Positions 41,596-60,726 of a stretch of 64,000 nt of DNA are shown here, in pieces. The position numbers and the translations under genes were made by a program. The stretch is from a virus: positions 64,001 through 128,000 of the IMG/VR virus record IMGVR_UViG_3300020599_000003; one strand, 5' to 3'. Each line of letters starts with the position of its first letter. Within the stretch, counting starts at the first letter, position 1. The notes below the pieces were generated by a model that ran no database searches, was not told the origin of the DNA, and saw only the letters and a program-made list of their open reading frames with translations.

Positions 41596-42111
41596 TCAAG
41601 TCCTTATCGGTGGTCGGTTGTTGCGTCGAGCGTTCACGGCAGCTACGAGCTGATCTCGACCAGTAGAGTAGTTCTTGAAGACCTGGAAGGTATATGTCTT
41701 GACCTCCGACCCGCCAGTGTAGATTGCCGTCACGTCGATTGACGTGATGCGATTGTTCACAGGGTCGGGGTAGTAGGCCACGACATCCGTGGAGTCGGGA
41801 GGGAGATCATCGAAGCTGTTGATCTCAGTGTCAGGGGCATTGTATGTCTGCTGATAGAACAGACGTTCGGAGAACATGCCTCGGAAGTTGATGAACGTGA
41901 TGGTGAGCGTACCCACACCACCGACAATGGACTTGTCGATAGTGTAGTTGGGGGGCCAGTACTCACCGAGAGTCCAGGTCAAGTCCGTGACGGACAAAGG
42001 AGAGTTGTCAGCAGGATCACCCGCCACCGATATCGTGAAGATCTGGTTGCCTTGGTGATCCTGGTAGATGGCGTCTGGCGGTGACGGCTCGGGGATCCAG
42101 ATGAGCGGCAT
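41596..42111 (-). CDS. Hypothetical baseplate protein
   Basis: 171 aa between spike and PAAR genes. Confidence 0.7.
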   Translation of the reverse strand: MPLIWIPEPSPPDAIYQDHQGNQIFTISVAGDPADNSPLSVTDLTWTLGEYWPPNYTIDKSIVGGVGTLTITFINFRGMFSERLFYQQTYNAPDTEINSFDDLPPDSTDVVAYYPDPVNNRITSIDVTAIYTGGSEVKTYTFQVFKNYSTGRDQLVAAVNARRNNRPPIRT

Positions 42112-42123
42112 ATCTGGCTCCGC

Positions 42124-42705
42124 TTAGTTCAGGTCGATACGCTCAGCGTTGACGCTGAAGTTGCCACCGACTTGGAAGGATGCATCCCCAGTGACCTCGT
42201 GGTGGTAGTTACCCTCGGTCCGGACGTGGAGATTACCCTTCACAGTGATGGTCAGGTTGCCGCTGGCATCTATGTGGAACGAAGTGCCCGAAGCGTGTTG
42301 GAACAGATAGTCCTTCGTCCGGGAGTTGACAATGAGCTTGGTGCCGGAAGGGTCCGAGTAGCCCCAGGAGTCGACGTCCGCGAAGTCCGGGTTGGCACAG
42401 TTTATGCAGAAGATGCCTGCATCGTAGAAGCCGTAGTCCGTGTCGTCGTCTTGCAGATCGACCCGCACCTGGGAGCCCAGGGGCGGGACGCCATACACAC
42501 CGAAGCCTTGTCCCTGCCCGAATGGGGCGAGGCGCGCGGGGGCGACCCATGGCAACGTCTCGACGGGACCTTCCATCTTGCCAGGGATAGTGACCTTGAT
42601 GCGGTTCAGTTTCTGAGGGTCGTCACGAAAAACCACCGTGCCGATGTAGTACTCTGGTGGGTTCAGTGATTCGTTGACCGAGTCGTTGAGGGTAGCATCC
42701 AGCAT
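42124..42705 (-). CDS. Baseplate central spike (gp5/V OB-fold + beta-helix)
   Basis: DDPQKLNRIKVTIPG, LPWVAP, VPPLGSQVRV, C-terminal 8-residue V.G repeats. Confidence 0.88.
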   Translation of the reverse strand: MLDATLNDSVNESLNPPEYYIGTVVFRDDPQKLNRIKVTIPGKMEGPVETLPWVAPARLAPFGQGQGFGVYGVPPLGSQVRVDLQDDDTDYGFYDAGIFCINCANPDFADVDSWGYSDPSGTKLIVNSRTKDYLFQHASGTSFHIDASGNLTITVKGNLHVRTEGNYHHEVTGDASFQVGGNFSVNAERIDLN

Positions 42706-43824
42706 CTATTTCTCCGAGCTATTGACGCCGTGGCGTTCGCACTGGATCTTGTCCAGGAAGTACGTACCCTTGATGAGGATGGACCGGGCAGTCACGAGGT
42801 ACAAGCCTGAGTTCTGCACATCAGCCTCTCCTGTGCGCACGCTGTACATGTTGCAGTTCAGCCAAGACAGCAGCGGAAAGGGGAGCGGCAGATAGTCGCT
42901 AGACAGATGCAGCTTCTGGTTGAACATCTGCGCGTAGCGAGCATTCTGATACTTCGCACGCTCCTTGGTCTCGCTGCTGTTGCCAACATCAATGCGACTG
43001 TGACGAGGCTTGCCTGTCAGGATGATCTTCTTGATGTCGGCATTGTAGTTTGGGTCGGTCACGTTGGGTGTGAACGTCAGGGTATCGACCCGGTCCGCCT
43101 TGATGAGGGACTGACGATACATCGTGGACTGGTAGCCTATGTTCTGGTTGGTGTAACCAGAGATAGACTCCGCATCGTAATGCGTGGCGAAGGCGCACCC
43201 GTCCTGGAATTGTCCGTTCACGACGGTTATCAAGGGTGCCTGTGGAGTGTTGACGTCCTTGTAGATCAGCCGGTTGGACAGATCGTAGGCAAGGGTCATG
43301 CGGGACGTGTCGGTCTTGAAGCCGTGCTGCGCCACGTAGCGTGCGAAGTCTGAGTATCGACGGTTCTGTTGATTCCAACTCTGTCTATCCGCCGTCTGCT
43401 CTCCGCTGTACTCGATACCGCACAGCTCTGCGATCCTCTGTAGTACGTCATTGGTCGTGCCGACGTAGTGCTGGAGACTGGTGCCCGCCCACCACAGTGG
43501 TGAGTCCAGATAACCCTCGATGATCCAAGTGTTACCTCCAGAAGAGTCGGGGGCCTTGGTGTGGTTGAAGAGTCGGAACGTGTATGTGGCGGGATCGTCC
43601 GTACCTGCCGCAATCTTGACCTGGATGCGCGTAGCGTCCTTCACCATCGGGACTGCATCGAGCACTCCCCAAGCATCGGAAATCTGCAGGACCATGACTG
43701 GCAGCTTCATGCCGAGCGTGGAGCCGATGTGTAGCTTCAGTACGGACATGTAGCCCGATATAGGGAGTTCAAACCCCTCGACATAAATAGATAGATTGAT
43801 TTGGTTATCGAGCTGAAATCCCAT
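42706..43824 (-). CDS. Baseplate hub (gp27/D-like)
   Basis: 372 aa directly upstream of the spike; hub-type layout. Confidence 0.6.
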   Translation of the reverse strand: MGFQLDNQINLSIYVEGFELPISGYMSVLKLHIGSTLGMKLPVMVLQISDAWGVLDAVPMVKDATRIQVKIAAGTDDPATYTFRLFNHTKAPDSSGGNTWIIEGYLDSPLWWAGTSLQHYVGTTNDVLQRIAELCGIEYSGEQTADRQSWNQQNRRYSDFARYVAQHGFKTDTSRMTLAYDLSNRLIYKDVNTPQAPLITVVNGQFQDGCAFATHYDAESISGYTNQNIGYQSTMYRQSLIKADRVDTLTFTPNVTDPNYNADIKKIILTGKPRHSRIDVGNSSETKERAKYQNARYAQMFNQKLHLSSDYLPLPFPLLSWLNCNMYSVRTGEADVQNSGLYLVTARSILIKGTYFLDKIQCERHGVNSSEK

Positions 43825-45034
43825 CCTGTATCCCCAGTAATTTCTGCTCTCCGCTCAGGCGAGCGTGAATATAAGATTGAGGTAGCCGCATCCTATAGAG
43901 TTCGGCGCCATCCTGATCGAAGAAAATCACACCAGCTGAACGAAGGGAGAATGTGAAGTTGACCCCCTTAGGTCCCGGTACTCGGAGGCGGGAAACGGCT
44001 TTGAGGTGAGGATTTCTCCGCCGTCCGTATACTCGCGTATCAAGTTCGAGGGAATATGTATCGTTACCGCAATGATAATGCTCCTTCGGTAAAGAACCGT
44101 TCAGCATAGGAACGTCCTTGTACACTTGTTCCCCAGAACAATACCTGCAACGGAATAAAGAAGTCTGAGTACCAACATACCGCTCCACGAGAACGAAGAG
44201 TGGATTGTGCCACGCTAGGCGTGCGTTAAACACAGAATCAGGGAGGGTCCGTGCCGCCCTGATTTTAGATCGAGTCTCATCAGAGACAACCCTACCGGTC
44301 TGCGCCCTAGACATGTTGGCCTTAGCTTCAGCGGAACGCTTCTGACCCCGGTTCGAAGCGGATATCTTACACCTCGTTTCATCAGAGTTGACCTTCCCAG
44401 AATGTTTAGCCGATACCTTAGCACGCGAAGCCTTAGACCATTTGCGCTGCCGATTTGCCTCACCTATCTTTATCTTAGATGCAGATGAATGACTCAACCC
44501 GGTATGGGAGATGGACATAAGCCTCCGGGTTGCGTCTGAAGGGACGTACCCACTCGCTCCATCCCCTCCATTGGTCTGGTTAGCCAAACAGCCAGTCCCC
44601 AAATCTTCGCGGCCGAAGTGATTGATTAGGAACATCTCCAGAGCCAGGGAGGTTTCCTCATCCAGACGATCGTATAGAATGTCTATGTACAGGGTACGAG
44701 ACTCGCGGAGCGCCTTCTTGATTATGTGATTCTTGTGAGAAGATTCCCTTAATCTACTGTCGTCAAAATGAACCTCTGGGCGCTTCTTAAGGCCCTTACC
44801 TATATAGTAGGACGGATGATCGCGACCGTCTGCATCCAAACTATAGACCAAATACTTCCTAGTGGTGTCGAGCTTTCTATTATTCCTCACTGCTTGCGCT
44901 CGGACTAGTTCTAAGAACGGTGCAAGTTTCCATCTTGGGGGCATTTTCTGCAGCCGGAGTCTCTTCACAAGGGTTCCGCGCAGTGAATCAGCATGCGAAT
45001 TGACAACCACATCGAATTCTTCGAGGATCATCAT
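43805..45034 (-). mobile_element. Free-standing GIY-YIG homing endonuclease with NUMOD3 repeats
   Basis: YLVYSL...YYIGKG...R, LEMFLINHFGREDLGTGCLANQTNGGDG, SDATRRLMS/SDETRCKIS/SDETRSKIR repeats; lower GC and atypical codons. Confidence 0.88.
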
Positions 45035-45207
45035 TTCGCACGCTGCTTGAGATATGCTTCGAGGGCTATGGAAACGAGCTTACTGAGCGACACAACCCTA
45101 CCACTCTCTTCAGTTAATCTCAAAGCTTCGCGACGGGCTTTAGCTTGTAGGGTGCGGCTGAGGGTGATAGAGGTGATGGCATAGCCACTCTTGGTCTTAG
45201 CGGGCAT
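45031..45207 (-). CDS. Ribbon-helix-helix DNA-binding protein (58 aa; not in ORF track)
   Basis: MPAKTKSGYAITSITLSRTLQAKARREALRLTEESGRVVSLSKLVSIALEAYLKQRAK; ATGA overlap with the endonuclease. Confidence 0.7.
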   Translation of the reverse strand: MPAKTKSGYAITSITLSRTLQAKARREALRLTEESGRVVSLSKLVSIALEAYLKQRAK

Positions 45208-45236
45208 AGCGTGTACCTTAGTAGGTTAGTAACGCT

Positions 45237-45245
45237 ATAAAATTG
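45237..45245 (-). promoter_or_regulatory. Putative phage promoter motif CAATTTTAT
   Basis: Exact copy 30 nt upstream of the RHH start. Confidence 0.65.
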
Positions 45246-45341
45246 GGCGCTGCGCCCACCCGTCGATGGGTAGCTCGAATCCCTCAACGTAGATGCCTAG
45301 GTTGATCTGATTACCCAATTGGTAAGGCATGGGTCAACCTC

Positions 45342-45683
45342 TTAGATGTTAATGGTGCGTTGTCGCGTGCTGCTCGCGGGAGTCTTCTGCGAGGCGATGT
45401 ACGCGTCTAGCGATTGCTTGGTGAACAGGTTGAGGGTGGCACCTGGATAGAGATCGGTGATCGGATCGATGATGCCATTATATGCCATGATGATATGGAA
45501 GGCGTTCTCATCGTTGTAGTAGCGATACGCGATGCCAGGGAGGTTCGCCAAATCAGCCTGCGTCAGTGTGATCCGTCGCATGAACTGGAGATTGTAGCGA
45601 ACATTGGAGTACAAGGTCGCGAAGGGCGACCGAGCAGTACCAGTGCTGTCTATTGGGGTGTTTTCGCTCCAACTATACGCCAT
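45342..45683 (-). CDS. Baseplate wedge gp53-like/LysM protein
   Basis: DLANLPGIAYRYYNDENAFHIIMAYNGIIDP...LYPG. Confidence 0.8.
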   Translation of the reverse strand: MAYSWSENTPIDSTGTARSPFATLYSNVRYNLQFMRRITLTQADLANLPGIAYRYYNDENAFHIIMAYNGIIDPITDLYPGATLNLFTKQSLDAYIASQKTPASSTRQRTINI

Positions 45684-45686
45684 GAC

Positions 45687-46712
45687 TTAGGTCCCCGCGA
45701 AGTAGTTCTGGAATTCGTTGGACTGATCGTCCACGTACAGCGGCGGGGGAAGGTCCGTGGCTTGGATGGAGCCTCCTGACCCCGGGAAAGCTTCCGGTGT
45801 GTACTCCGACTCGTAGTTCGGGTCGATGGTCTGCGTGGTGTCTGCCGTCCCGTAGACGTTATCGACGAGGTCTTCAGGTCGGATGTGGAAGATCTTCCCC
45901 AGATCCTCACGAGTGATGAGGAACATCGGCCGGAAGCGGAAGTCCACTTCGCAATACTGCATATATCCTCGGCTATCAGGCTGAGTATACACCGTCTTGC
46001 TGACGCTAAGCGGCACGATGTTGTCAAAGGTGATCTGCGTGCCGATGTCGATGGAAACCTGACTCGCCATCATGCTCTCGAGCCATGCACGAGTGCCGAA
46101 CGCAGCCGGCTCCGGGTCCTGTTGCGACGCGTTGACCGAGCCGCGAGTACCGGATTGGTTCTGGGCCGGATTGGTCTGGCTCTTCATCGTGGTCTGCGAT
46201 GCGAAGCCCTTCGGCTGGTTGAGAACCCCAGTCTGCTGAGCTTCGGGGCTGGTCGTGGACTGACCATTCATGTACCGGTCCACGTTCTCCTTGATGTATC
46301 CCAGCACCTTCTGGAAATCGATGCCACCCACCGGCGCAGTGAGCATACCGACCTTGTTGGTGCCTGCCGCGCAGAGCGACTCCAGTTGGTAGACCGGCAG
46401 CGTGACATCACGGTACGCATCCGTCTCCGCCTGGAAGACGAACTTGAGCGTGATGTCGTCGCTGGAGGTACCTGACCAGACCTGTGCAGTCATGGCTTGC
46501 CAGAGAGGCTTGGTGCCGAAGACGTTAAGTGCCTTGAGGAAGCCGCCCCCGAACAGATTGCCGAAGGCGGGCTCGTACTCAGCCGAGCTGTCGTACATGA
46601 ACTGCTCGGACAGATTGGCGTAGATGGCGAGATTCTTCGTGCCGCTACCATCCTTCACTATTTTTCTTATAACTGCGGTATACGCAGGATTGAATGTGTT
46701 TGGGGAGGCCAT
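45687..46712 (-). CDS. Baseplate tube-cap/initiator protein (gp48-like)
   Basis: AQVWSGTSSDDITLKFVF motif; synteny. Confidence 0.55.
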   Translation of the reverse strand: MASPNTFNPAYTAVIRKIVKDGSGTKNLAIYANLSEQFMYDSSAEYEPAFGNLFGGGFLKALNVFGTKPLWQAMTAQVWSGTSSDDITLKFVFQAETDAYRDVTLPVYQLESLCAAGTNKVGMLTAPVGGIDFQKVLGYIKENVDRYMNGQSTTSPEAQQTGVLNQPKGFASQTTMKSQTNPAQNQSGTRGSVNASQQDPEPAAFGTRAWLESMMASQVSIDIGTQITFDNIVPLSVSKTVYTQPDSRGYMQYCEVDFRFRPMFLITREDLGKIFHIRPEDLVDNVYGTADTTQTIDPNYESEYTPEAFPGSGGSIQATDLPPPLYVDDQSNEFQNYFAGT

Positions 46713-46715
46713 AGA

Positions 46716-47327
46716 TTACTTGTTCTCGGGGATGTTGTCGAGATTGTCCACCAGAGTGTCCATTTCTACCTTGACCAGATCCTCGCGCTCCAGGTAGGCG
46801 TTCACGCGCTCGATACGATCGTCCAGACCATTGGTGCCGCCGTTGATCGCTCTGGTCACACCGAGCGTGTCCCCGGCGCGAGCCATCTCGGGTATGCGAG
46901 GACGTTCCACTCGCCAGTACCAGAGAGCAGCCTGCACAGCGATGTCCGGTTGGGCCAGGAGGTCCGGGTTGTTGATGAGATCCAGACCCAGGAACTTGCC
47001 ACACTTCTCGTAGTTGGCGCGGCCCGTCATCTGGATGAAGCCCCGTCCACGGAACTTGTAGCCGTCGCCGACTTCGCTGTTGCCGAGGTTGAACGCGACG
47101 TAGTTGATGTCACCCGGCTTCAGGCCTGGACCCCACGGAGCTTTGAAGTCGCGCTCGTATTTGAGCTGTTGCTTGGTAGGACCCCAGATCTCATACAGGT
47201 AGACACCTTCCATGGATTCGTGCGCGAGCTGGCCCAGGAACTGAGCACGCTCTTTGGGGTCGAACATGCCCCCTTTGTTCATGCCGTCAACGAGGACGGC
47301 TTCAAAATTGAATTTCGGCTTTGCCAT
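46716..47327 (-). CDS. Glycoside hydrolase family 19 endolysin
   Basis: AQFLGQLAHES, GDGYKFRGRGFIQMTGRANY, AALWYW, TRAINGGTNGLDDR. Confidence 0.93.
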   Translation of the reverse strand: MAKPKFNFEAVLVDGMNKGGMFDPKERAQFLGQLAHESMEGVYLYEIWGPTKQQLKYERDFKAPWGPGLKPGDINYVAFNLGNSEVGDGYKFRGRGFIQMTGRANYEKCGKFLGLDLINNPDLLAQPDIAVQAALWYWRVERPRIPEMARAGDTLGVTRAINGGTNGLDDRIERVNAYLEREDLVKVEMDTLVDNLDNIPENK

Positions 47328-47340
47328 TGCTAGATCCTTC

Positions 47341-48666
47341 TTAGCGATTGGCGTCTACAACGACGCCGTTGGGTAAGCGGATGGGGTTCGGGGCTTGCTG
47401 AGGCTGCGCTTGAGGCTGAGGAGGAGGGTAGGCGGTAGCGTCCACTATAGGCTTCTGCACCTGCGCGTCGACCGCCTGTTGAGTTGCTTCTGCTACTGTC
47501 GGGGTTGCAGGTGGAGTTGCAGTGGTTGCTCCCCCATAGATGGCGGCATAACCAGCGGACCACGCCTCGAGCTTGGCCTTCGTGAGCCCCACGTACTCGC
47601 TGACGTACTCAGACTTACCATACAGGTTGTTCCGGACGTTCTTGCGAAGACCATCGGGCAGCTCGTCAATGCGCAATCCAGCGTTCGCGGCGTCGATGAG
47701 TGTCTTCACTGCGCCGGGACCTTGTTGGTGAGCGAGATACAGATTGGTGATGGTCGGGGCCACGCCCTTCGCCTTGAGGAACTTCACGTTGTCGAGGTAC
47801 AGACGAGCACCAGCATCCAGGTTGGCAGCTTCATCCATTTCCCGGCCCGCAATGCCGTACATCTCGGCAGTGGACGGGATGAACTGGAGCAGACCCTTCG
47901 CACTCTTCTCACCACGAGAGACGTTCTTGCCTCCGGATTCGATGGCGATATAGGTGAGAAAGTCCGCACGATCGATGCCGTAGCGGTCAGCGGTCTTGAT
48001 GCCGAGTGCCACGACGTGTTCAGGGAGCTTGGGACCCGAACCCATCTTGGCGGAAGAGACGGAGCCTCGGTAGTCCGTGCCAGTGCGACGAGCTTCGGAG
48101 AGGCCCAGATCCTGCGCGGTAGTCTCCACCGTGCGGAACTCGAACTCTCCTGCGTCTTCGAGACCAGCTTCCCTGTTCTTGATCGTGCGATACGCTAGAT
48201 AGGTCCCTACACCCGCAATTATGGCCCCAGACAGGATGGGGTTGGCTGCGATGAACGGCATGAGCAGCCGTATGACACTACGGAATCCGAACCAGACAAT
48301 CTTGACCATCGTCCGCACGAGGGCGGAGGTGATGCCCACTAGAGCGCGGATGACGCCTCGGCCTGCGTATATCAGGGCTTGGCCCATCGCACGGCCCAAG
48401 CCACCGACTTTGTCGAAGACCTCCACGGCTGTATCGAACCAACCTCCGTCCTCTTCGGCTACCGTAGCTAGGGCTTCTTGGCGAGCAATCATCACGCGAG
48501 CCAGAGCCTCGTTAGGGTTGTCTGAGAAGTCGTTGCGCTGTTCCGGGTGCTGGAACGCCCGACGGATGGACCGCTGAATGTTCTCGGGGGAGAGGGTCTC
48601 CTCGAAGAGTCCACTCCCAGGAGTCCCACCGAGCAGGAAGCCCGAGGCTACTGTCAGTGTGGTCAT
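47341..48666 (-). CDS. Tail-associated lytic transglycosylase (SLT domain) with TM segment
   Basis: IAIESGG, AKGLLQFIPSTAEMYG, LYLAHQQGPG; hydrophobic N-terminal third. Confidence 0.85.
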   Translation of the reverse strand: MTTLTVASGFLLGGTPGSGLFEETLSPENIQRSIRRAFQHPEQRNDFSDNPNEALARVMIARQEALATVAEEDGGWFDTAVEVFDKVGGLGRAMGQALIYAGRGVIRALVGITSALVRTMVKIVWFGFRSVIRLLMPFIAANPILSGAIIAGVGTYLAYRTIKNREAGLEDAGEFEFRTVETTAQDLGLSEARRTGTDYRGSVSSAKMGSGPKLPEHVVALGIKTADRYGIDRADFLTYIAIESGGKNVSRGEKSAKGLLQFIPSTAEMYGIAGREMDEAANLDAGARLYLDNVKFLKAKGVAPTITNLYLAHQQGPGAVKTLIDAANAGLRIDELPDGLRKNVRNNLYGKSEYVSEYVGLTKAKLEAWSAGYAAIYGGATTATPPATPTVAEATQQAVDAQVQKPIVDATAYPPPQPQAQPQQAPNPIRLPNGVVVDANR

Positions 48667-48673
48667 AGTGTTC

Positions 48674-50182
48674 CTATCGGATCATGTTGGACAGGGGGAG
48701 CAACGAGCTCCCTGAGTTGGGGACATAACCCTCACCCCCTCCAGCGGGAGGTAGCACTCGCTTCAACTCGGCATTGGCTATAGTGTTGCCTACACCGACA
48801 CGGTCATTCAGCTTGTCGCGACTGGCGGCCAGGATGATCTCAGGCTGCTTGATTTCCGCAGCGCTCATCTCGTTCTGGCCCTTCATGGCCGAGGTCGACG
48901 CGATGGTCGTGCTGGCGCTTGCAGGAGGAGTGGATGCCGACGTGTAGCCACCCCCTCCGCTGCCGGAAAGCGTAGCTTCGTCAGCCGCAGCTTGGCGGCG
49001 GGCCGCTTCAATCTTCTGCGCACGACGAGCGGCGCGCTCGCCCTGCTTACCGGCACGAGCAGCTTCCACATCCATCTGGTTGGCAGTGACTGCTCGCCAG
49101 ACGGCAGTGCCTTTGTCGCTCTCGCGGATGGCGTCAGCCTGCTTCTTCAGCTCTTCCGCCTTGGCGTTGAACTGGTCGGCTTCCTTCTCAGCCTTCTCCT
49201 GAGCTTCCCTTCGGTCGGCTTCCTGCTGGACGGGGTCCACGTCCTTGAACCCGAAGAGATCCTTCAAGTAGTTTGTGAACTCGTCAGCTTCCTTCTTGAT
49301 GAAGTCCCACGCCTGCCCCAGGAGCTTCTGGGCGTTATCAATCGTGAAGAAGTTGCCAATCTCGGCCAGCTTATCGTCGATCCACTTGCGGAAGACCGGG
49401 CTGAAGATGTAGGCCAGGCCGCCCAGCTTGGCGAGCTCGGTCAGGAGGTTCTTGCCTGCGCCCTTGGCCTTGCCGACGAAGTCGTCCTTGTACTCGTTAA
49501 ACTTGCGCCACCACTGAGTGGCCCAATTCTCGGTAGCCTCACGGTCTTCCTGCCTGCGAGCAGCTTCAGCAGCCTTCCCCTTCGGTGAGTCTGGGGAGGA
49601 CAGGATCTCGTCCAGAGAGGCTCCCCCATCTTCATAGGGGCCCTGACCCTCCTCAATCTCACGCAACACGTCTTCGACAGTCTTGCCGACAGCAGGCTTC
49701 TCCTTGGGAGTAGCCTTCTCTTTGACCTGGCCCTTGAGACGCCGGATCAGTTCGTCATACTGGGACTTGGCCGTGTCTACGGCCTCAGTGTACTGCTCTT
49801 CGCTGAACTGAGCCAGTGAGTCGTTGGCCGAGTCCACGAGTTCTTCGATGGCCTGGAGCAGATCAGAACTACGCTCCTGGTAGACTGCCGCAGTCACGTC
49901 CTTGACGAGCTGCTCGGTCTCCGCGTCGGTGAGCTCCTTGCCGCCCCTGGAACGCTTCTTGACCTCCGCGGCGATGCGCTTGTCTGCGGTAGTCTCGATG
50001 ATGTCAACCCCGCGCTTGAACACGTCGCCGGCGAGCTTACTGTATTGGTTGATCAGCTTCAATAGCCGATCCGTATCTGCCTTGGTAGCCGTTCCCTTCA
50101 AGACCTTGTCGATGGTCCCCGACTCGGCCTTAGAGAGTTCAGCCCACTTTGCAGCGGCTTTCGTGGCTGTATCTACCGCCAT
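48674..50182 (-). CDS. Tape-measure-like coiled-coil protein
   Basis: 502 aa from ATG 50182; Ala/Glu/Lys helical; follows the tail chaperones. Confidence 0.55.
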   Translation of the reverse strand: MAVDTATKAAAKWAELSKAESGTIDKVLKGTATKADTDRLLKLINQYSKLAGDVFKRGVDIIETTADKRIAAEVKKRSRGGKELTDAETEQLVKDVTAAVYQERSSDLLQAIEELVDSANDSLAQFSEEQYTEAVDTAKSQYDELIRRLKGQVKEKATPKEKPAVGKTVEDVLREIEEGQGPYEDGGASLDEILSSPDSPKGKAAEAARRQEDREATENWATQWWRKFNEYKDDFVGKAKGAGKNLLTELAKLGGLAYIFSPVFRKWIDDKLAEIGNFFTIDNAQKLLGQAWDFIKKEADEFTNYLKDLFGFKDVDPVQQEADRREAQEKAEKEADQFNAKAEELKKQADAIRESDKGTAVWRAVTANQMDVEAARAGKQGERAARRAQKIEAARRQAAADEATLSGSGGGGYTSASTPPASASTTIASTSAMKGQNEMSAAEIKQPEIILAASRDKLNDRVGVGNTIANAELKRVLPPAGGGEGYVPNSGSSLLPLSNMIR

Positions 50183-50284
50183 ATTGGGATACCCCTGGTA
50201 TGCCCCGCAAGACCCTCCGAAGCTCATGTAGGGAGCGCTTTCGGAGGGTTTTCGGAGCGGTTTTGAGAGGGTTTACGGGCCGCC

Positions 50285-50446
50285 CTATAGAGGCACCATG
50301 CCGTCCTCGATGGCCTTCTTACGGAGGTCACGCAAGGACTCAGCACGATTGGACATCCAGAACAGCTCGACTATAGGCATGGTGTCAGGCGGTTGCGACT
50401 TGAACTCCAGCATGTACAATGCTTTGCGTTCGAACAGAAGATCCAT
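50285..50446 (-). CDS. Small tail/hub assembly chaperone (gp51-like; possible frameshift extension)
   Basis: 53 aa from ATG 50446; the frame is open upstream through the end of the preceding gene. Confidence 0.5.
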   Translation of the reverse strand: MDLLFERKALYMLEFKSQPPDTMPIVELFWMSNRAESLRDLRKKAIEDGMVPL

Positions 50447-50450
50447 CCGG

Positions 50451-51590
50451 TCAAATGGGAAGAAACGAGCGGGCATCGAGCGTGATCTTGGATCGACGCT
50501 GATGCCCACACTCCGGACAAGTCACCAGAACATATTCGTCAGGGCCGTAGGACGTCGCGGCCTTTTCGAACTCCCCAATCTTCAGCAGCTCATCGTAGTC
50601 CAGGGTTTCCATGAACTCGATACGCCGAGCGAGCGGAGCGTCGGGCTCCCCTTTGATGCGGATGAGCGAGGCAGCACGACACATGTACTTCAGATCGGCG
50701 TTGTCCTCGTAATCCGGCTGGGCCAGAGCTTCCATGACGTCGATCATGAGAGCGGGCTTCAGTTCGAAATGCTCGAACTGGTACTGCGACATGTCGGGGG
50801 CGCTCCCCAAGTACTTCGTGTGGATGTTGGAGCGCGTGACCTGCATGGTGATCTGCAGCGACTCCGGAGCCTTTTTGCCTTGCTCGACTGCGAGCAGGTG
50901 TTCAGGGTTGTTGCACTTCGTCCGGTGCGTGAGGCTGGTCTTGATCTGGTTCAGGCGCAGGAAATACAGCACCCAATAGAAGTCAGGGATAGTCAGGTGG
51001 AAGGCCAGCGGCTTCTCCTGCCAGTTCGGATGCGACGTACCCAGAACATCGGACACGGCTTCCAGCAGATAGGCGTAGGACTGCGAGACATACGCCTCGT
51101 GCAGCTTGGCGAAGTGCGGGAGGCGGAACTTGCCGACGTACAACTCCTTGAACTCGTAGAATACGTAGCCGGACGGCAACTCCGCGATGGCGGTATCCGT
51201 ATCCTTGCGAGGTGTGTAGGTCGGTGGATCGAGAGGGACCGTGGGGCCTTCCGGGTGGACGATCTCCGTGGTCAGGGGCTTGATCTCCTGGGCTTCCTTC
51301 ATCCTTGCCGCGATGTGCGCCTGCAAGGCGGGGCTGATCTTGGGGAAGGGGCGTCCGGTGGCAGGATTGATCTCAGGCTGTTCGGCTTGAGAGGGTTCTT
51401 GAGAGGGTTCTTGAGGAGGTTCCTGCGTGGAGGCTCCAGGAGTCAGTCGTTGAGGTTGGCGCAGCGTCTGAGGTTCAGGCTCCGGCTGCTGGGGAGCACT
51501 CTCCTTCTGCCGGGTGAGAATGTTGTCAAGGTTGCGCTGGCGCGAGGCTGCGATGCCTTCTTGCGACAGATCGAACACTTGTCGGGTCAT
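50451..51590 (-). CDS. Baseplate hub assembly chaperone (T4 gp26-like)
   Basis: LAELPSGYVFY, LTIPDFYWVLYFLR, C-terminal CPECG zinc knuckle. Confidence 0.7.
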   Translation of the reverse strand: MTRQVFDLSQEGIAASRQRNLDNILTRQKESAPQQPEPEPQTLRQPQRLTPGASTQEPPQEPSQEPSQAEQPEINPATGRPFPKISPALQAHIAARMKEAQEIKPLTTEIVHPEGPTVPLDPPTYTPRKDTDTAIAELPSGYVFYEFKELYVGKFRLPHFAKLHEAYVSQSYAYLLEAVSDVLGTSHPNWQEKPLAFHLTIPDFYWVLYFLRLNQIKTSLTHRTKCNNPEHLLAVEQGKKAPESLQITMQVTRSNIHTKYLGSAPDMSQYQFEHFELKPALMIDVMEALAQPDYEDNADLKYMCRAASLIRIKGEPDAPLARRIEFMETLDYDELLKIGEFEKAATSYGPDEYVLVTCPECGHQRRSKITLDARSFLPI

Positions 51591-51629
51591 AGTCTTCTCG
51601 TAGTGTAGTTGATGGAACCTGACTAATAG

Positions 51630-52505
51630 TCAGAGCGGGATCCCCTGGTCTTGAGCGCCCGCGTCGATCAGGCCCGGAGCACCAGAGATGGTAACAAACA
51701 CGTCGTCGACACTGATGTCCACCGCATAGTTGACGAGGGTGTCCTTGGACGAGTCCAGAGAAATTTCAGCCACGTTTGTGATCCAGCACCCCGTGTAAGT
51801 AATGTACGCGACCTTGGAGAGGTCAGGGGCCAGGATGACGGCTGTGATGGGGCGCTTGATTTGAGCAGGCGCAGCCCACATGCCACCCCTCACGTTGGAG
51901 TTAGGGGGTGAAAATGGCACTAGCGGCGAGTTGTGCCATGCGTTCAGGTAGCGGAACGAGAGGCCCTGCGAATCCCCGTAGACCGTGAGCCGCATGTTGC
52001 CGACATCGTAACCTGCCGGATATTTCGCCTTCCGGCCGTTGCGGAAGATGGTGCGGGCCTCGTACTGGCGGAGTGGTAGAGTGGCCTCCAGGACGTATTC
52101 GTACCCGAGGCCAGTAGCACCAGACACTAGGCTGGAGGCTGAGCGGGTGAGCCCCTGAGTAACGTTTGCCGCCACGCTGGAGGCGAAGCCTGCGTTTGCC
52201 CCTAGGCCAGAGGCGAGGTCTCCAGCAGCGCCCCCGATTGCTCCCGCGACGCCACCGACTGCGCTCCCGATCATCCCGGTTCCGGACGAGATGCCGAAGT
52301 CATACCCCGGCAACTCGATGTACCACGTATGAGACAGAATCGGATCGGGGAGCTTGGTCGCGTCCTTGAAGGGATTGTAGGGGTTGAAGACGAGGTCGTT
52401 GAGAGAGGGGGCGCCGCCAGTGGTTAGATTCACGGCTGCACCAGCGACGTTGATGCCGGGGATCTTGCTGCTCAACCCCAAGGCTGTGTTCACGTCGAAT
52501 CTCAT
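51630..52505 (-). CDS. Tube-like baseplate initiator (gp54-like)
   Basis: 291 aa from ATG 52505; WYIELP, EATLP, KYPAGYDVGNMRLTVY resemble tube-fold proteins. Confidence 0.55.
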   Translation of the reverse strand: MRFDVNTALGLSSKIPGINVAGAAVNLTTGGAPSLNDLVFNPYNPFKDATKLPDPILSHTWYIELPGYDFGISSGTGMIGSAVGGVAGAIGGAAGDLASGLGANAGFASSVAANVTQGLTRSASSLVSGATGLGYEYVLEATLPLRQYEARTIFRNGRKAKYPAGYDVGNMRLTVYGDSQGLSFRYLNAWHNSPLVPFSPPNSNVRGGMWAAPAQIKRPITAVILAPDLSKVAYITYTGCWITNVAEISLDSSKDTLVNYAVDISVDDVFVTISGAPGLIDAGAQDQGIPL

Positions 52506-52678
52506 ACTGTACTCCAAGAAAAGAAGCAGGCCCAACCGACGTGCGACGGGATAAGGACCTGCCGAAAGCCGTGTAGAGGAGCATCCCGCCGAAGACTCCA
52601 ACGGCGCACGATGAGTAGTATCCTAGTAGGACTAGATTGTAATCCACTCAGTGACGTGGACGCATAGAGTCCATGCGA

Positions 52679-53131
52679 TCAAGTTCCGAAAAGAATCGCA
52701 ATCCCGCTCGGGCTGGTCGGAGCGAACGGGTTCGGGTTAGGTCTGTCGATTAGGTGCATCATCGTCGCGTCGCGCCCCTGCTCGCGGGGTGCTTCAGGGT
52801 TCATGTGCTTGCCGATGTCCACCGACTTGGTGATAGGGTCAGGCTTGCGCATGTTGATGACGATCTCCTGAGTGTCATCAGCGTCGGGCACATATTCAGG
52901 CTTGAGGTTGGTCTGATATATGAGCCACGTATTCGACATCTCCGGATCGTCCACGCGCTGGATACCGAGGTTGTCCAGCACGAAGTTGATCTGCTGGTCC
53001 GGGCAGGCTACCACGAGCTTGATTCTGCGAGTGGCACACCAGCCCTGGATGGAGATCAGATCTCGGTAGATCCGAGCCTTCACGGCGTCATTGAAGACGT
53101 CGTAGGCAATACCAAGGATTTCGGGTTTCAC
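52679..53131 (-). CDS. Hypothetical protein
   Basis: 150 aa; GTGA-coupled. Confidence 0.65.
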   Translation of the reverse strand: MKPEILGIAYDVFNDAVKARIYRDLISIQGWCATRRIKLVVACPDQQINFVLDNLGIQRVDDPEMSNTWLIYQTNLKPEYVPDADDTQEIVINMRKPDPITKSVDIGKHMNPEAPREQGRDATMMHLIDRPNPNPFAPTSPSGIAILFGT

Positions 53132-53391
53132 AGCTTCCTCCGCAAGCGAGAGGTGAGGGTGGAGTAGTCCTGGTCGTCAAGTTCGATAGCCTGCGCATTG
53201 ATGACGACAGTGTTCTGCAAGGCCGACACGAGGACCGAAGACCCCGTGCGCAGGATATGCCCCCGCACTCGAATCTCCGGCCCTTGGTAGAAGTAGGGAA
53301 CCGGAGCAGTCATTGCCAAGCGAGCACGTATCTGATTCAGAGTGGAGTCGTCGTGGTGGCTGGTCTTCAAGTGGTACATAGATCCTGTCAT
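53128..53391 (-). CDS. Hypothetical small protein
   Basis: 87 aa; contains TLNQIRARLAMTA. Confidence 0.6.
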   Translation of the reverse strand: MTGSMYHLKTSHHDDSTLNQIRARLAMTAPVPYFYQGPEIRVRGHILRTGSSVLVSALQNTVVINAQAIELDDQDYSTLTSRLRRKL

Positions 53392-55262: not shown

Positions 55263-55267
55263 AGGTC

Positions 55268-55762
55268 TTATAGTCCCGTGGGGCCGTAGAACAGTTGGTC
55301 CTTGAAGGACAGGATCTGACCGCCGAAGCGCTCAGTGGCCTCCTCGGCCCATTCCTTGTGCGTTGCACCCTTCACCATGTTGATGTGGGCATTGTATTCG
55401 AGGAAGCCGTGCTTCCAACCATTGGTGGCGAGGTTACGATGCTGGACCACAGCCTTGGGGAAGTGTAGGATGCACACGATGATATCGCGGCCCTTGTGGT
55501 CGGTCCAGCATTCGAAGTGCCGGATGCGGGCGTACGGAGGGATGTCGCACTCCTCCCACGGACGCCCGGTGGTATTGCTGAACATCACCGTGCAATGCCA
55601 CTCCATGGGAGGGACGAGCTGATCGCGTTCCGGATAGGTGGCAGCAACCTCGATGAGATCGAACATCGCCTCAGGCGTGAGGTGGTAGCAGAAGTATCCG
55701 CCCTCGCGGCCGAGCACGTCGTTGGCGTTGCGGAGCTGATTGTATTCGAGGCTGATAGCCAT
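55268..55762 (-). CDS. acb1: Acb1-like 2H phosphoesterase (anti-CBASS, T4 gp57B family)
   Basis: WHCTVMFS...FECW...IVCIL...HGFLEYNAHINM matches the 57B layout (HST..YS, LEVW, HDFDDYTPHITL). Confidence 0.75.
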   Translation of the reverse strand: MAISLEYNQLRNANDVLGREGGYFCYHLTPEAMFDLIEVAATYPERDQLVPPMEWHCTVMFSNTTGRPWEECDIPPYARIRHFECWTDHKGRDIIVCILHFPKAVVQHRNLATNGWKHGFLEYNAHINMVKGATHKEWAEEATERFGGQILSFKDQLFYGPTGL

Positions 55763-55771
55763 TGGTGTTCC

Positions 55772-56641: not shown

Positions 56642-56647
56642 GAGAGC

Positions 56648-57022
56648 TTAGTACTGATCCCACTGCTGGAAGGTAGGTTCCGGGTATGACGCAGGGGCCG
56701 GCGGAGGCATGTTCGGCATCGTGGCAACGTTCTGCCGGGGTTGCTGAGCCGTCAGCTCGGCCAGCTTCTCGTTGGTGAGGGGCAAGCACACCCGGGATTC
56801 GGGATGCACGGCGACGAACGAAGGATCCATCGAACCATCAGCGTTGCGATAGAAGATGCGGACGATCTTCATGGGCTGACGGGTGACAGGGCAGAGCAGG
56901 TTGTTCACCGTGTCCGCAGACATGTCCACCCCAGCGGACACCGGCTTCGGCTCCGGGCGCTTGCGTGCGGTGAGCGTGTTCTTCGAGGAGTCCCAAGCTT
57001 TGGGTACGCGCAGAGTGGTCAT
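56648..57022 (-). CDS. Hypothetical protein
   Basis: 124 aa from ATG 57022, ATGA-coupled to RuvC; CPVTRQPM...RVCLP. Confidence 0.65.
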   Translation of the reverse strand: MTTLRVPKAWDSSKNTLTARKRPEPKPVSAGVDMSADTVNNLLCPVTRQPMKIVRIFYRNADGSMDPSFVAVHPESRVCLPLTNEKLAELTAQQPRQNVATMPNMPPPAPASYPEPTFQQWDQY

Positions 57023-57576: not shown

Positions 57577-57616
57577 GATCTGGTGGTCGTGAAGCGTTGT
57601 ATGCGCGGGGCGCATC

Positions 57617-57625
57617 ATAAAATTG
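57617..57625 (-). promoter_or_regulatory. Putative phage promoter motif CAATTTTAT
   Basis: Exact copy 41 nt upstream of the RuvC start, after a terminator. Confidence 0.65.
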
Positions 57626-57687: not shown

Positions 57688-57692
57688 GGGCA

Positions 57693-59816: not shown

Positions 59817-60521
59817 TTATGTGGAGATCTCTCGCTTGCGAGCTGCTCTGGCATCCAGCATGCGCTGTCGGTATTCGGGATCTTGCCAACGCTTTCTGAT
59901 GAAGTCACTAAAAGCTTTGCGGCGATCAGGATCATCCCAGTCCTTCTTCCTCTGTGCGGAAAGTGCCGCCCGATGTGACGGATCCTGACCGAGCTTCTTC
60001 ATTGACTGGCTCAACGTCTTGCGGTACTCTGGGTCCTGAGCAGCCTCTCTTCGCTTGGATGTCAGACGTGCCCTGTAAGAAGGGTCTTGCCAGAGCTTCT
60101 TGTTGGCGTCGCTGCGTTCCCTTCGTAGTTCTGGATCGGACCATTCAGACTTCCGTACTTCGGACATCTTCTTCCGCGTCGATTCGGAATGACGGAATCC
60201 AGACACCCCTTCGCCTCCAACTGTCAAGTTCGTCAGGCATCCTGTACCATCAACTTCTCTGCCATAGTAGGCAATCCATTCACATTCTAGTTTGAATGCC
60301 TGAGCTTCAGTAAGACTTTCGGCGAGTATCTTGATGCGGATGCGCTTGCCTTCCGCCAGATCCTTCTTGATGATGTTGTTCTTATGCGTGTTGGCACGCA
60401 ACTTGCTTTCTAGGAAGTGCTTCTCTGCGCGGTAGCCTTGGCCCTTACCTATATAGAACGGCTTCTTCTTACGCTCGCGTTACAGGGCGTACACATAGAA
60501 GATTTGCCGATTGGTGCTCAC
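59817..60521 (-). pseudogene. GIY-YIG homing endonuclease with premature TAA at codon 14
   Basis: GTG 60521: STNRQIFYVYAL*RERKKKPFYIGKG...R...LECEWIAYYGREVDGTGCLTNLTVGGEG plus NUMOD3-like SESTRKKMS; TAA at 60480-60482. Confidence 0.8.
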
Positions 60522-60688
60522 TTCGCACCCCGCTTCTTGAGCGACTGGCGGACTGCATCGCAGATGAGCTTGCTGACGGATACGTGAGGACTACCATCAG
60601 CAGAGCTTTTCAACGAGATCATCTTGAGTTGGTTCAGGAGCTTACGCTCGATACTCAAGGAGGTGACGGTGAGTTCAGGCTTCTTCAT
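60518..60688 (-). CDS. Ribbon-helix-helix DNA-binding protein (56 aa; not in ORF track)
   Basis: MKKPELTVTSLSIERKLLNQLKMISLKSSADGSPHVSVSKLICDAVRQSLKKRGAK; GTGA overlap with the endonuclease. Confidence 0.7.
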   Translation of the reverse strand: MKKPELTVTSLSIERKLLNQLKMISLKSSADGSPHVSVSKLICDAVRQSLKKRGAK

Positions 60689-60717
60689 GGCGCTAGTACC
60701 TAGTGGTTAGTAGTGCC

Positions 60718-60726
60718 ATAAAATTG
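60718..60726 (-). promoter_or_regulatory. Putative phage promoter motif CAATTTTAT
   Basis: Exact copy 30 nt upstream of the RHH start. Confidence 0.65.

Follow-up and report, generated by a model that had tools for sequence, protein, structure and literature searches.

A GIY-YIG homing endonuclease cassette with a predicted ribbon-helix-helix gene, and its natural empty site, in a baseplate gene of an uncultured phiRSL1-like phage

Introduction

Homing endonuclease genes must spare the genome of their host, and three solutions are known: introns, inteins and intergenic landing sites. The locus described here raises the questions of how such a gene came to lie inside an open reading frame (ORF) for a baseplate-region protein, and what the very small gene coupled to it may do. 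The locus belongs to the 177,803-bp genome of an uncultured, phiRSL1-like soil phage. The window, that is, the whole stretch of DNA analysed, comprises 64,000 nucleotides (positions 64,001 to 128,000 of IMG/VR record IMGVR_UViG_3300020599_000003); positions are those of the window, and all features annotated in it below lie on the minus strand. A preliminary description, made from the sequence alone, had proposed a self-regulated mobile unit of a ribbon-helix-helix (RHH) gene and a GIY-YIG endonuclease gene, with its own promoter and candidate operator.

Two known systems are relevant. According to a review on T4-like phages (Edgell, Gibb & Belfort 2010, PMC2988022), late promoters lie inside RBS hairpins, I-TevI represses its own gene, and homing can be one-sided and illegitimate. 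A 2026 preprint (Moon, Zedaveinyte, Wiegand & Sternberg, bioRxiv 10.64898/2026.09.24.754181) reports that the RHH protein Arc binds and represses an IS605-family promoter, and its Fig. 1c places Arc homologues also beside homing endonuclease genes.

Results

The target gene (42706..43824) encodes a 372-aa baseplate-region protein (PHROG 25710); homologues in the phages PaBG and PhiXhv bear the annotation 'baseplate hub' or 'baseplate protein'. Its boundary with the cassette was read from record 5 of run X11 (1,441 nt, depth 6.58), a contig from another study, in which 42695-43751 is joined to 45258-45641 with 1,506 nt skipped and 3 + 2 other letters. Because of this join, cassette 1 was delimited as a 1,506-bp insert (43752..45257, with an uncertainty of 1 nt at the junction) that interrupts the baseplate gene at nt 73/74. 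The join 43751/45258 is a natural empty site for cassette 1. An empty-site allele had been proposed earlier as a check on the mobile unit, and the contig, which skips exactly 43752-45257, provides it: presence/absence polymorphism at a defined site was found for cassette 1, in this one contig of run X11, a run filed as bioreactor metagenome with its kind guessed as 'DNA?'. Sequencing depth in X11 was zero across the whole cassette and about 6.5 in the flanks, and the strain is a different one, with SNPs and a variable patch; the runs X10 and X14 covered small parts of the stretch.

The original 5' end of the baseplate gene (45258..45330) is now part of a 31-codon stub ORF (45235-45330). In the empty allele, this 5' end runs on into the gene body, and the gene predicted there is in frame (372 aa). 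The original 5' end starts 11 nt past a 113-aa gene, where the gene start lies in relatives; a 112-116-aa gene directly abuts the baseplate gene in Motura and BcepSauron. The occupied allele has instead a cassette-borne 5' end of 73 nt (43752..43824), which overlaps the 3' end of the nuclease gene by 20 nt. The two 5' ends agree at 45/73 nt (28/73 differ) and at 5/24 third codon positions. GC3 of the new 5' end is 0.48 vs 0.67-0.83 in the remainder of the baseplate gene, and that of the cassette is 0.52-0.54 vs 0.7-0.8 for resident genes. Judged by these values, the composition of the cassette is foreign, and cassette 1 supplies a substitute, recoded 5' end to the baseplate gene. The insertion, with all its parts intact, is called recent because the flanks differ from the empty strain by 5 letters in 1,441. 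The stub ORF, which has a stop of its own, and the substitute start together argue for a free-standing insert rather than an intron; no Rfam family, introns included, was found in 42000-62000 at E<=1. Cultured phages gave no match in a DNA search with 42700-46000, and the literature search on duplicated target 5' ends, as far as the sources were accessible, returned no relevant printed case. The resemblance of a leader 6-mer (AGGTAC) to the target junction was set aside as chance.

The nuclease gene of cassette 1, GIY1 (43805..45034, 409 aa), is an intact GIY-YIG and NUMOD3 homing endonuclease gene, the product of which ends in a C-terminal domain with Cys/His. NUMOD3 was detected by Pfam (5.8e-10), and the matches of the cassette nucleases to PHROG 314 ('homing endonuclease') were at 4.1e-22 (GIY1) and 9.4e-17. 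The columns VY..L, Y(I/V)GKG, R, H, E and N are common to GIY1, GIY3 of cassette 3 and the BcepSauron homologue, and the nuclease profile matched the solved GIY-YIG protein 9u75 at 1.7e-4. The GIY-YIG model of Pfam gave no match (LEM-3_GIY-YIG, at 0.036, was under the cut-off), and none was obtained in the PDB by phmmer with GIY1. With both the catalytic motifs and separate DNA-binding modules recognizable, the cassette nucleases are classified by sequence as GIY-YIG homing endonucleases.

A second cassette of the same layout had been described. RHH2 (60518..60688, 56 aa) is indeed coupled to a GTG start by the overlap GTGA, but the nuclease frame behind it, GIY2 (59817..60521), is broken by an in-frame TAA (60480-60482). 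This is codon 14, between the GIY and YIG motifs, where the sibling GIY3 has a Tyr codon, and the longest ORF of the frame (59817-60401, TTG start) is without both motifs. Cassette 3, which lies outside the window, shares this leader and encodes an intact 288-aa nuclease, GIY3, with no RHH gene between leader and start. Tandem W(Q/K)DPxxR repeats stand in place of NUMOD3 in GIY2 and GIY3, and identity of the catalytic domains between cassettes is 37-45%. The genome contains three sibling copies and one decayed fragment elsewhere; the earlier count of two holds for the RHH genes, of which there are 2 only, but leader plus nuclease occur three times. No duplication was found in the flanks of cassette 2, those of cassette 3 gave an 11-nt repeat only (not significant), and the 132-aa ORF downstream of cassette 3 had no phage homologue to fix its start.

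The 58-aa gene RHH1 (45031..45207) precedes GIY1, and its stop overlaps the GIY1 start as ATGA, which confirms the coupling to an intact GIY-YIG/NUMOD3 gene reported before. RHH1 and RHH2 gave a gap-free alignment of 52 aa with 29% identity (E 9e-6; identities 29-33%), and VS-SKL and a K-R-(G)-A-K tail are common to both, in agreement with the SxSKL and K-x-R-(G)-A-K motifs noticed previously. Pfam gave no match for RHH1 or RHH2 themselves. Profile search yielded a family of 17 matches, of which about 12 have a length of 54-59 aa, and 4/11 members matched RHH_1 (best 3.6e-7) and 4 RHH_3 in Pfam. The profile search of the PDB gave 2kel at 5e-4, a CopG-family RHH at 0.042 and CopG/Arc/MetJ 'antidote' proteins at 0.09-0.11, the range with ParD included being E 0.09-0.33. 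The top cluster in the Atlas was CopG RHH_1 (82% of members; score 0.93, 175 shared features). AF2 predicted helices at 18-35 and 41-57 (pLDDT 73). The homodimer model scored 0.57 vs 0.00 for the best control, a mark reached by 20/30 proteins solved as pairs and 1/23 solved as single chains, and this score may reflect likeness to solved RHH dimers. Runs agreed in at least 98% of contacts with a partner pLDDT of at least 78, and the contacts (13-13, 11-15 and helix 2) describe an antiparallel ribbon. Searches with the monomer model by Foldseek and VIA-align returned no match above noise. Both profile membership and a strand-helix-helix order with a predicted ribbon dimer were thus found, and the small proteins are assigned, on profile matches and the predicted dimer, to the CopG/Arc-type RHH proteins.

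Outside this genome, a protein 88% identical to RHH2 (P0002) was found on another 148-kb contig. A contig from an RNA library spans 45069-45219 and is weak support for expression, because DNA can occur in such libraries. No match to RHH1 or RHH2 was obtained in cultured phages by tblastn at E<=1, and the word-index search with RHH1 returned RHH1 itself only. Longer (fused) forms of the RHH family were not found, which is weak evidence. Metagenomic relatives of another family member (P0015) are RHH-tailed proteins of 103 aa, encoded upstream of a ParA-like ATPase and a 333-334-aa ORF; they were considered as an endonuclease context and rejected, the arrangement probably being one of plasmid partition, with the ATPase judged by its Walker-type N-terminus.

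The pairing of RHH and GIY-YIG genes, expected earlier in other genomes, was not found at the loci and records covered: an RHH gene of the cassette family was absent at 19/19 loci with related nucleases and from 10/10 whole phage records searched. For the proposed spread between loci in jumbo phages, there are three loci within one 178-kb genome and none with such an RHH gene among those 19 loci and 10 records.

The cassettes start with an octamer, AATTTTAT, at 45237..45244 in cassette 1 and 60718..60725 in cassette 2, which is a putative promoter. AATTTTA occurs at 18 genome sites (13 on the minus and 5 on the plus strand), 17/18 of which have a same-strand ORF start within the next 150 nt, and 11/18 read CAATTTTAT vs about 0.4 expected from base composition. 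By its distribution, AATTTTAT is a promoter-like motif of the whole genome and is not specific to the cassettes. The cassette's own promoter, as described before, is plausible, but its motif is general to the phage. The accessible literature on phiRSL1 promoters held no relevant report. AATTTTAT as the mere U-tract of a terminator was rejected, the upstream 34-mers folding at -6.9 vs -6.7 kcal/mol for random ones (p=0.38). Cassette 1 itself has a strong, terminator-like GC hairpin (TGGGCG-CAG-CGCCCA, 45244..45258) at the left end of the insert, followed by the T-run of the motif; such a hairpin is not general among motif sites (p=0.38).

Leader 1 (45208..45236) contains TACTAACC, ACTA repeats and the Shine-Dalgarno site AAGG. 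The homology of the leaders, claimed earlier, was confirmed: TACTAACC occurs 3 times in the 177,803-bp genome, every time in a cassette leader, and leaders 2 and 3 are identical in 27/27 nt vs about 75% for the adjoining coding DNA. A search of viral contigs with the leader pattern gave no match. The ACTA repeats are present as described (three at 7-nt spacing in cassette 2, two at 8-nt spacing in cassette 1), but the pattern ACTA-N3-4-ACTA is not rare genome-wide (7 vs 4.45 +/- 2.7 in shuffles). The repeats sit in the loop and inner stem of a predicted hairpin, and RNA structure alone may therefore account for them.

This hairpin is predicted at 45205..45239 in cassette 1, where UAUAGCGU pairs with ACGCUAUG (AUG inside) and ACCU pairs with AGGU of the Shine-Dalgarno site, and at 60685..60721 in leader 2, where UUAUGGC pairs with GCCAUGA and three ACTA heptads are included. 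Folding energies were -10.9 kcal/mol (z -1.9) and -13.7 kcal/mol (z -2.6; 2/200 shuffles fold as well), respectively. The calculated probability of an unpaired AUG was 0.07 with and 0.74 without the 5' arm for hairpin 1, and 0.00-0.07 and 0.74-0.84, respectively, over the three leaders. The motif is predicted to pair with the Shine-Dalgarno site and AUG in 3/3 leaders, with one compensatory A-U/G-C change among the three sequences; among the 18 motif sites, such motif-AUG pairing was found at 4, namely the three cassettes and a topoisomerase-IB-like gene. A hairpin over the RBS and AUG with the putative promoter in its 5' arm, as in T4, is thus predicted, the place of the motif being read directly. 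The predicted RNA hairpin would explain leader conservation at least as well as binding by RHH.

Discussion

The reading that we regard as somewhat probable is that of sibling, hairpin-controlled GIY-YIG cassettes, with autorepression by RHH in two of them and entry of cassette 1 into the baseplate gene by one-sided repair. Each cassette would begin with the AATTTTAT motif of the phage, serving also as the 5' arm of the RNA hairpin. Transcripts reading through from the host operon would be translationally silent because the Shine-Dalgarno site and start codon of the first cistron would lie in the 3' arm, and translation would be limited to transcripts starting just behind the motif. The first cistron of 2/3 cassettes would encode the RHH dimer, and the nuclease would be made there only by translational coupling to RHH. 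RHH would most likely bind the DNA of the leader at TACTAACC and the ACTA repeats, immediately downstream of the motif, repress the cassette promoter and keep the nuclease level low, possibly also in trans on the RHH-less cassette 3 via the identical 27-nt leader. The entry of cassette 1 at nt 73/74 would have been through double-strand-break repair that was one-sided and in part illegitimate, and the recoded start of the cassette would keep the baseplate gene working. The likely cut site of GIY1 would be near the insertion point, and GIY1 may cleave the empty but not the occupied allele.

A repressor role of RHH is plausible by analogy with Arc, and gene order and stop/start overlap are kept despite RHH identities of 29-33% and nuclease catalytic identities of 37-45%. 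Cassette 3 is intact without RHH in cis and RHH2 is intact beside the broken GIY2; RHH is therefore not a requirement of the nuclease and may have another purpose. According to this alternative, which we consider rather unlikely, RHH would be a hitch-hiker or have another job (an accessory factor of homing or repair, or a regulator of phage or host genes), and the leader would be kept by the promoter-plus-hairpin design only. Besides the two siblings just named, it is favoured by a hairpin that covers most of the conserved leader positions and by the lack of a partner RHH at all 19 loci of related nucleases. It leaves aside that TACTAACC, which is unpaired, is the same in three leaders and nowhere else in the genome, a sameness that the hairpin does not demand; that order and overlap are maintained at about 30% protein identity; and that a precedent exists in Arc, which represses an adjacent nuclease promoter. 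The toxin-antitoxin-like arrangement suggested in the preliminary description, in which RHH, synthesized first to leave no free nuclease, would neutralize the nuclease by protein contact, is improbable. RHH antitoxins (ParD, CopG/Arc/MetJ 'antidote') share with our proteins the fold, the upstream place, the gene overlap usual in type II operons and a weak profile similarity (E 0.09-0.33). However, the proteins have 56-58 aa with helices ending at residue 57, leaving no space for the toxin-binding tail that is usual at the C-terminus, and the partner is a standard homing endonuclease. A toxin is always found with its antitoxin in type II systems, whereas the genome holds 2 RHH copies and the intact nuclease of cassette 3 stands without RHH in cis, which weakly opposes the suggestion.

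That the small ORFs are unexpressed, or that the cassettes are decaying junk with an inherited layout, is very improbable: nuclease 2 is broken, a decayed fragment lies elsewhere in the genome and Pfam is silent for both RHH proteins, but about a dozen family proteins are of the same size, P0002 maintains 88% identity to RHH2 on a separate contig, the recent cassette 1 is intact in all parts, with flanks so close to the empty strain, and the RNA-library contig adds weak support, DNA being possible in the library. Hardly credible is RNA splicing as the cause of the 1,506-nt skip, with the cassette as an intron instead of a DNA allele. The join is precise and in frame, and the kind of X11 was only guessed as DNA; against this stand the absence of any Rfam family, introns included, in 42000-62000 at E<=1, the zero depth over the cassette beside flanks of about 6.5, the different strain in X11, with its SNPs and variable patch, and the filing of the run as bioreactor metagenome.

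Small regulator genes beside nuclease genes are known also from restriction-modification systems, in which the gene of the DNA-binding C protein lies upstream of the nuclease gene, often overlapping it. C proteins are helix-turn-helix proteins, and nuclease expression follows the regulator. Unlike in C-protein operons, the regulator here would be an RHH and not a helix-turn-helix protein, there is no methylase, and the purpose would be to limit a homing nuclease.

Closer likenesses are found in T4 (PMC2988022). Like Seg proteins and I-TevI, the cassette nucleases combine a GIY-YIG catalytic domain with NUMOD3-type modules; like the free-standing homing endonucleases of T4, which are inserted next to or into essential phage genes, cassette 1 lies in a phage gene; like I-TevI, segB and mobE, the cassettes have a candidate promoter in the 5' arm of a hairpin hiding the RBS, by which their own transcripts alone would be translated; and one-sided illegitimate double-strand-break repair is known there as a route to new sites. 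By this analogy, the motif-SD/AUG hairpin would be the known T4 way to silence read-through transcripts. Unlike I-TevI, which represses itself without a partner, two cassettes have a separate RHH gene as first cistron with the nuclease coupled to it. Unlike the T4 systems as presented there, the insert lies inside an ORF and provides it with a recoded 5' end in place of the original one, the host is phiRSL1-like and the promoter motif is another one. Like IS605 Arc in the preprint (bioRxiv 10.64898/2026.09.24.754181), RHH is encoded by a tiny gene beside the nuclease gene of a selfish element; in most cases arc and tnpB are transcribed divergently from a bidirectional promoter region, whereas RHH is co-directional with, and translationally coupled to, the nuclease. 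The nuclease is TnpB in IS605 and GIY-YIG here, and the likeness to that system is one of arrangement and RHH type. New here are the empty site, the distinction of the cassette-specific TACTAACC from the genome-wide AATTTTAT, and the predicted hairpins in all three leaders.

With its boundaries known to the base pair, the locus provides the states before and after a fourth solution to the sparing of the host genome, an in-ORF insert with a substitute gene start, and this natural pair points to the likely cut site. By analogy, the theme of a small RHH repressor plus a selfish nuclease, known from IS605, may here extend, in a co-directional, coupled form, to the homing endonucleases of phages. 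With three siblings (RHH and live nuclease, RHH and dead nuclease, live nuclease alone), control in cis and in trans can be compared simply, and compact nuclease modules with their own regulator are of practical interest for phage engineering. A farther-reaching reading, which is possible but doubtful, is an 'invade-and-repair' homing cassette with a travelling RHH autorepressor, trans action on siblings, 24 recoded codons and an occupied allele that resists cutting and deletion. If it is true, RHH2 beside the dead GIY2 would control the intact cassette 3 via the identical 27-nt leader, and a small regulatory network would link the selfish elements within one phage. The recoded first 24 codons would then allow the cassette to sit inside an essential structural gene without intron or intein, and the recoded copy would protect the occupied allele from cutting and make its deletion by recombination difficult.

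Insertion of cassette 1 and its empty allele

The source record (177,803 bp, direct terminal repeats, G+C content of 58%), of which the window forms bases 64001-128000, encodes a baseplate-region protein with 32-35% identity to its counterparts in Burkholderia phages BcepSauron and BcepSaruman, Achromobacter phage Motura and Ralstonia phage phiRSL1, and no match to window positions 42700-46000 was found among cultured phages at the DNA level. Cassette 1, composed of a ribbon-helix-helix (RHH) gene, RHH1, and a GIY-YIG nuclease gene, nuclease 1, is mobile and its edges are known, the join being carried by one contig from a run whose kind is a guess. Four public sequencing runs were compared over window positions 42000-46800. 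Run X11 is a bioreactor metagenome of 2023 from another study than the 2018 soil runs, which may be the source of the record, and was guessed to be a DNA run. One X11 contig of 1,441 nt (depth 6.58) covers 42695-43751 and then directly 45258-45641, with 3+2 letters different from the window, whereas both cassette 1 and its flanks are covered in the soil run X8. The 1,506-nt skip is unlikely to be the product of splicing, since no Rfam family, introns included, matched 42000-62000 at E<=1 and the depth of X11 is zero throughout the skipped stretch. The contig skips exactly 43752-45257 (minus strand), which was taken as the insert on the basis of the join and of synteny, and this empty-site allele bears out the mobile unit that the preliminary description had suggested.

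In the gene for a 372-aa baseplate-region protein (42706..43824, minus strand), the join falls between nt 73 and 74 (nt 73/74), with nt 1-73 derived from a stub ORF at 45235-45330 and nt 74 onward from the present gene. The joined gene is in frame and encodes 372 aa, and 5 of its first 24 residues differ from those of the present product. In Motura and BcepSauron, the homologue of a 113-aa gene is directly followed by that of the 372-aa gene, which agrees with the stub, starting 11 nt after the 113-aa gene, as the old start of the baseplate gene.

Along the direction of transcription, cassette 1 consists of a GC hairpin with the T-run of the promoter-like motif (together terminator-like), the motif itself, the leader, RHH1, nuclease 1 and a substitute 73-nt start of the baseplate gene, which overlaps the last 20 nt of nuclease 1. 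By composition, the substitute start is the foreign copy: its GC3 (0.48) is nearer to that of the cassette genes (0.52-0.54) and that of the stub (0.68) is nearer to the rest of the baseplate gene (0.67-0.83). The two 73-nt copies have 45 nt in common, with matches at codon positions 1, 2 and 3 in 20/24, 19/24 and only 5/24 cases, respectively, and a different codon is used at 15 of the 18 conserved residues with a synonymous choice (10.9 expected by independent draws, nominal P=0.027). Because positions 1 and 2 match and position 3 does not, and because the N-termini of distant relatives show far lower likeness at the protein level than the two copies do to each other, the donor gene was fairly close in protein sequence but had silent sites that were either saturated or deliberately changed.

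Both junctions of the insert fall at one point of the target gene, as would be the outcome of one-sided double-strand-break repair. In this scheme, the nuclease would cut the empty allele close to nt 73/74; the right end would prime on the donor at this break, whose left end would be joined without homology, and the recoded start copy would protect the occupied allele. Illegitimate one-sided homing is documented for T4 (review of Edgell, Gibb & Belfort 2010, PMC2988022).

Separately from the cassette, the X11 strain differs from the window in a 341-aa gene (45687-46712), where positions 46086-46200, a stretch of about 115 nt, show 27 letter differences and 14 gap places between flanks of about 99.6% identity; this stretch is a hypervariable patch of a baseplate/tail-region protein.

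Nuclease genes of the three cassettes

By several measures of sequence likeness, the 409-aa ORF at 43805-45034 (minus strand) is a homing endonuclease: it matched NUMOD3 (5.8e-10), PHROG 314 'homing endonuclease' (4.1e-22) and, by profile, a solved GIY-YIG protein (1.7e-4), the GIY, YIG, Arg, His, Glu and Asn columns are kept, and its weak relatives in 72 phage records are annotated as Seg-like or intron endonucleases. All ORFs of the preliminary description exist, and both the intactness of nuclease 1 and the overlap of its ATG with the TGA of RHH1 as ATGA were confirmed. We take its C-terminal domain to be the DNA-binding domain. Outside the window, a decayed copy of this domain was located on the minus strand at genome 46166-46555, antisense among plus-strand genes; it is 35% identical and contains an in-frame TAA.

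The second cassette, described earlier as having the same layout, does have an RHH gene coupled to a nuclease frame, the TGA of RHH2 overlapping the GTG of nuclease 2 as GTGA (minus strand), but this frame is broken by an in-frame TAA at 60480-60482. The stop falls at codon 14, after the GIY and before the YIG motif, where the sibling gene of cassette 3 has a Tyr codon in the alignment, and the longest ORF left (59817-60401) is without both motifs. Beyond the window, cassette 3 (genome 154205-155113, minus strand) shares this leader and encodes an intact nuclease of 288 aa with 50% identity to nuclease 2, but it contains no RHH gene; in the alignment of cassettes 2 and 3, the RHH2 gene is a clean indel between the leader and the nuclease start. 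The unit reported as present twice is thus so for the RHH gene, but leader and nuclease occur three times. In nucleases 2 and 3, the C-terminal half (window 59817-60200 and genome 154205-154700, respectively) consists of W(Q/K)DPxxR-bearing units, each about 20 aa long and repeated in tandem, a putative DNA-binding array unlike the NUMOD3 and Cys/His domain of nuclease 1.

The neighbours of cassette 3, named from their sequences, are an ORF of DNA polymerase A type and one that is primase-like, and the 11-nt repeat TGCGAGAAGGT is present at either end. Upstream, a mini-ORF (MECEKVSDAP...) is similar to ...SCEKVCDEP... in the 132-aa ORF downstream, so the locus may be a second rebuilt 5' end, a likeness not significant alone. 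The polymerase ORF upstream (genome 155209-156546) is only 445 aa long and, judged by sequence, seems to start within the polymerase domain, and the gene may be split.

Small RHH proteins

RHH1 (45031-45207, minus strand) and RHH2 (60518-60688, minus strand) encode 58 and 56 aa, respectively, and were the only two copies detected in the genome by the family HMM. The shared motifs listed in the preliminary description are present, and the two proteins give a gapless alignment of 29% identity (E 9e-6). Pfam gave no match for either of them. A full-library profile search gave 17 hits, about a dozen of which are proteins of 54-59 aa; RHH_1 was detected in 4 of the 11 aligned members (best 3.6e-7) and RHH_3 in 4, and a precomputed PF01402 hit was present in 3 of 13 members. 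The family profile matched 2kel at 5e-4, an entry titled only 'protein 56B' which we take to be the RHH regulator SvtR, and further matches were a CopG-family RHH protein (0.042), CopG/Arc/MetJ antidotes (0.09-0.11) and ParD1 (0.33). The nearest Atlas cluster was CopG RHH_1 (score 0.93, 175 shared features).

The AF2 model (pLDDT 73) contains helices at 18-35 and 41-57 after an extended N-terminus, and fold searches with the monomer model were uninformative. The predicted homodimer scored 0.57 against 0.00 for the best control, with contact agreement between runs of at least 98% and partner pLDDT of at least 78; among proteins of solved structure, 20 of 30 pairs and 1 of 23 single chains attained this score. 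The symmetric contacts 13-13 and 11-15 of the model, together with helix 2, fit the RHH ribbon, although likeness to solved RHH dimers may account for the pass. From the family profile matches, the Atlas cluster, the AF2 model and the predicted homodimer, the small proteins are RHH proteins. Two 151-nt contigs of the soil metatranscriptome run X14 match 45069-45219 and 45260-45410 at 100%, one of them covering the RHH1 ORF, which is a weak hint of transcription, as such libraries can hold DNA.

Motif and leader of the cassettes

The motif at the head of each cassette had been described as a promoter of the cassette's own; it does head each cassette, but it is not private to them. AATTTTA occurs at 18 genome sites (13 on the minus strand and 5 on the plus strand), and for 17 of these an ORF of 50 aa or more begins on the same strand no further than 150 nt behind. 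In the window, GCCCAATTTTAT was found at 8 sites when as many as 2 mismatches were allowed, all on the coding strand, against 1.37 expected, and the CAATTTTAT form was counted at 11 of the 18 motif sites against about 0.4 expected by hand arithmetic from base composition. The form (C)AATTTTAT(GG) lies strand-specifically ahead of genes on the minus strand at window positions 3763, 13503, 15560, 24586, 26183, 35630, 41297, 45244, 57624 and 60725. The motif is probably a promoter element of this phage group. Its reading as a terminator U-tract was rejected as a general one, being unsupported across sites.

Directly behind the motif, TACTAACC occurs three times in the genome, each time in one of the three cassette leaders, and is private to the cassettes within this genome. 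The claim of homologous leaders holds. Their ACTA repeats are not beyond chance. The three leaders are predicted to fold alike, with the motif UUAU(G/A)GC paired with GC(C/U)AUG(A) at the start codon and the ACC of TACTAACC paired with the GG of the Shine-Dalgarno site. Six outer pairs of the consensus fold are kept in 3/3 leaders, with one double change from A-U to G-C, and the fold is also kept in cassette 3, where the 3' arm is the start of a different gene. Pairing of AUG with the motif was found at only 4 of the 18 motif sites, namely the three cassettes and, outside the window at genome 22775-24486, a gene resembling topoisomerase IB (Pfam Topoisom_I 4.5e-19), which has the same motif-to-start-codon hairpin. 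The predicted probability of an unpaired AUG in the three leaders is 0.00-0.07 with the motif in the transcript and 0.74-0.84 if the transcript begins 6 nt behind the motif.

The arrangement predicted for all three cassettes is that described in the T4 review (PMC2988022) for T4 I-TevI, I-TevII, I-TevIII and segB and for Aeh1 mobE, where read-through messages are silent because the late promoter sits inside a hairpin that hides the RBS. Such a design would account for a large share of the leader homology, but not for the invariance of the unpaired TACTAACC or for the identity of the leaders of cassettes 2 and 3 at 27/27 positions, against about 75% in the adjoining coding DNA, which leaves room for a candidate protein site.

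Role of the RHH protein and relation to known systems

The order of RHH gene and nuclease gene with overlapping stop and start is kept at about 30% RHH identity and 37-45% nuclease identity, and because it is kept at such low identities the pair appears to be old and co-travelling. The nuclease would be made by re-initiation at the overlapping stop and start behind the RHH gene. The best-supported model, by analogy, is that the RHH protein would act as a repressor of the cassette's own promoter. According to Moon, Zedaveinyte, Wiegand & Sternberg (bioRxiv 10.64898/2026.09.24.754181), the Arc RHH protein of IS605 elements binds and represses the element's promoter (ChIP-seq, reporters), and Arc homologues adjoin homing endonuclease genes. 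The toxin-antitoxin-like arrangement that had also been considered, in which RHH protein and nuclease would form such a pair, is a weak alternative, as no tail is present behind the RHH core and one sibling nuclease stands alone.

Several points speak against an obligatory role of the RHH protein: cassette 3 is intact without it, RHH2 is kept beside a dead nuclease and the related loci searched are without it. Flanks of 0.8-5 kb on the upstream side of related nucleases contained an RHH protein of this family at 0 of 19 loci (13 viral contigs and 6 cultured phages), whole-record searches for the family found it in 0/5 viral records and 0/5 cultured phages, and no small ORF was found upstream of the BcepSauron nuclease. 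Loci were recovered for the most distant family member only, and in these a ParA-like ATPase, so named from its Walker-type N-terminus, follows RHH-tailed proteins of 103 aa.

The cassette resembles a T4-type free-standing GIY-YIG homing endonuclease in all membership features tested here. Printed cases of three of its aspects were not found in a literature search, which does not prove their absence. Relative to the literature found, the co-directional, translationally coupled RHH first cistron, the landing of the insert within an essential gene, for which it supplies a recoded start, and the natural empty allele fixing the boundaries are new.
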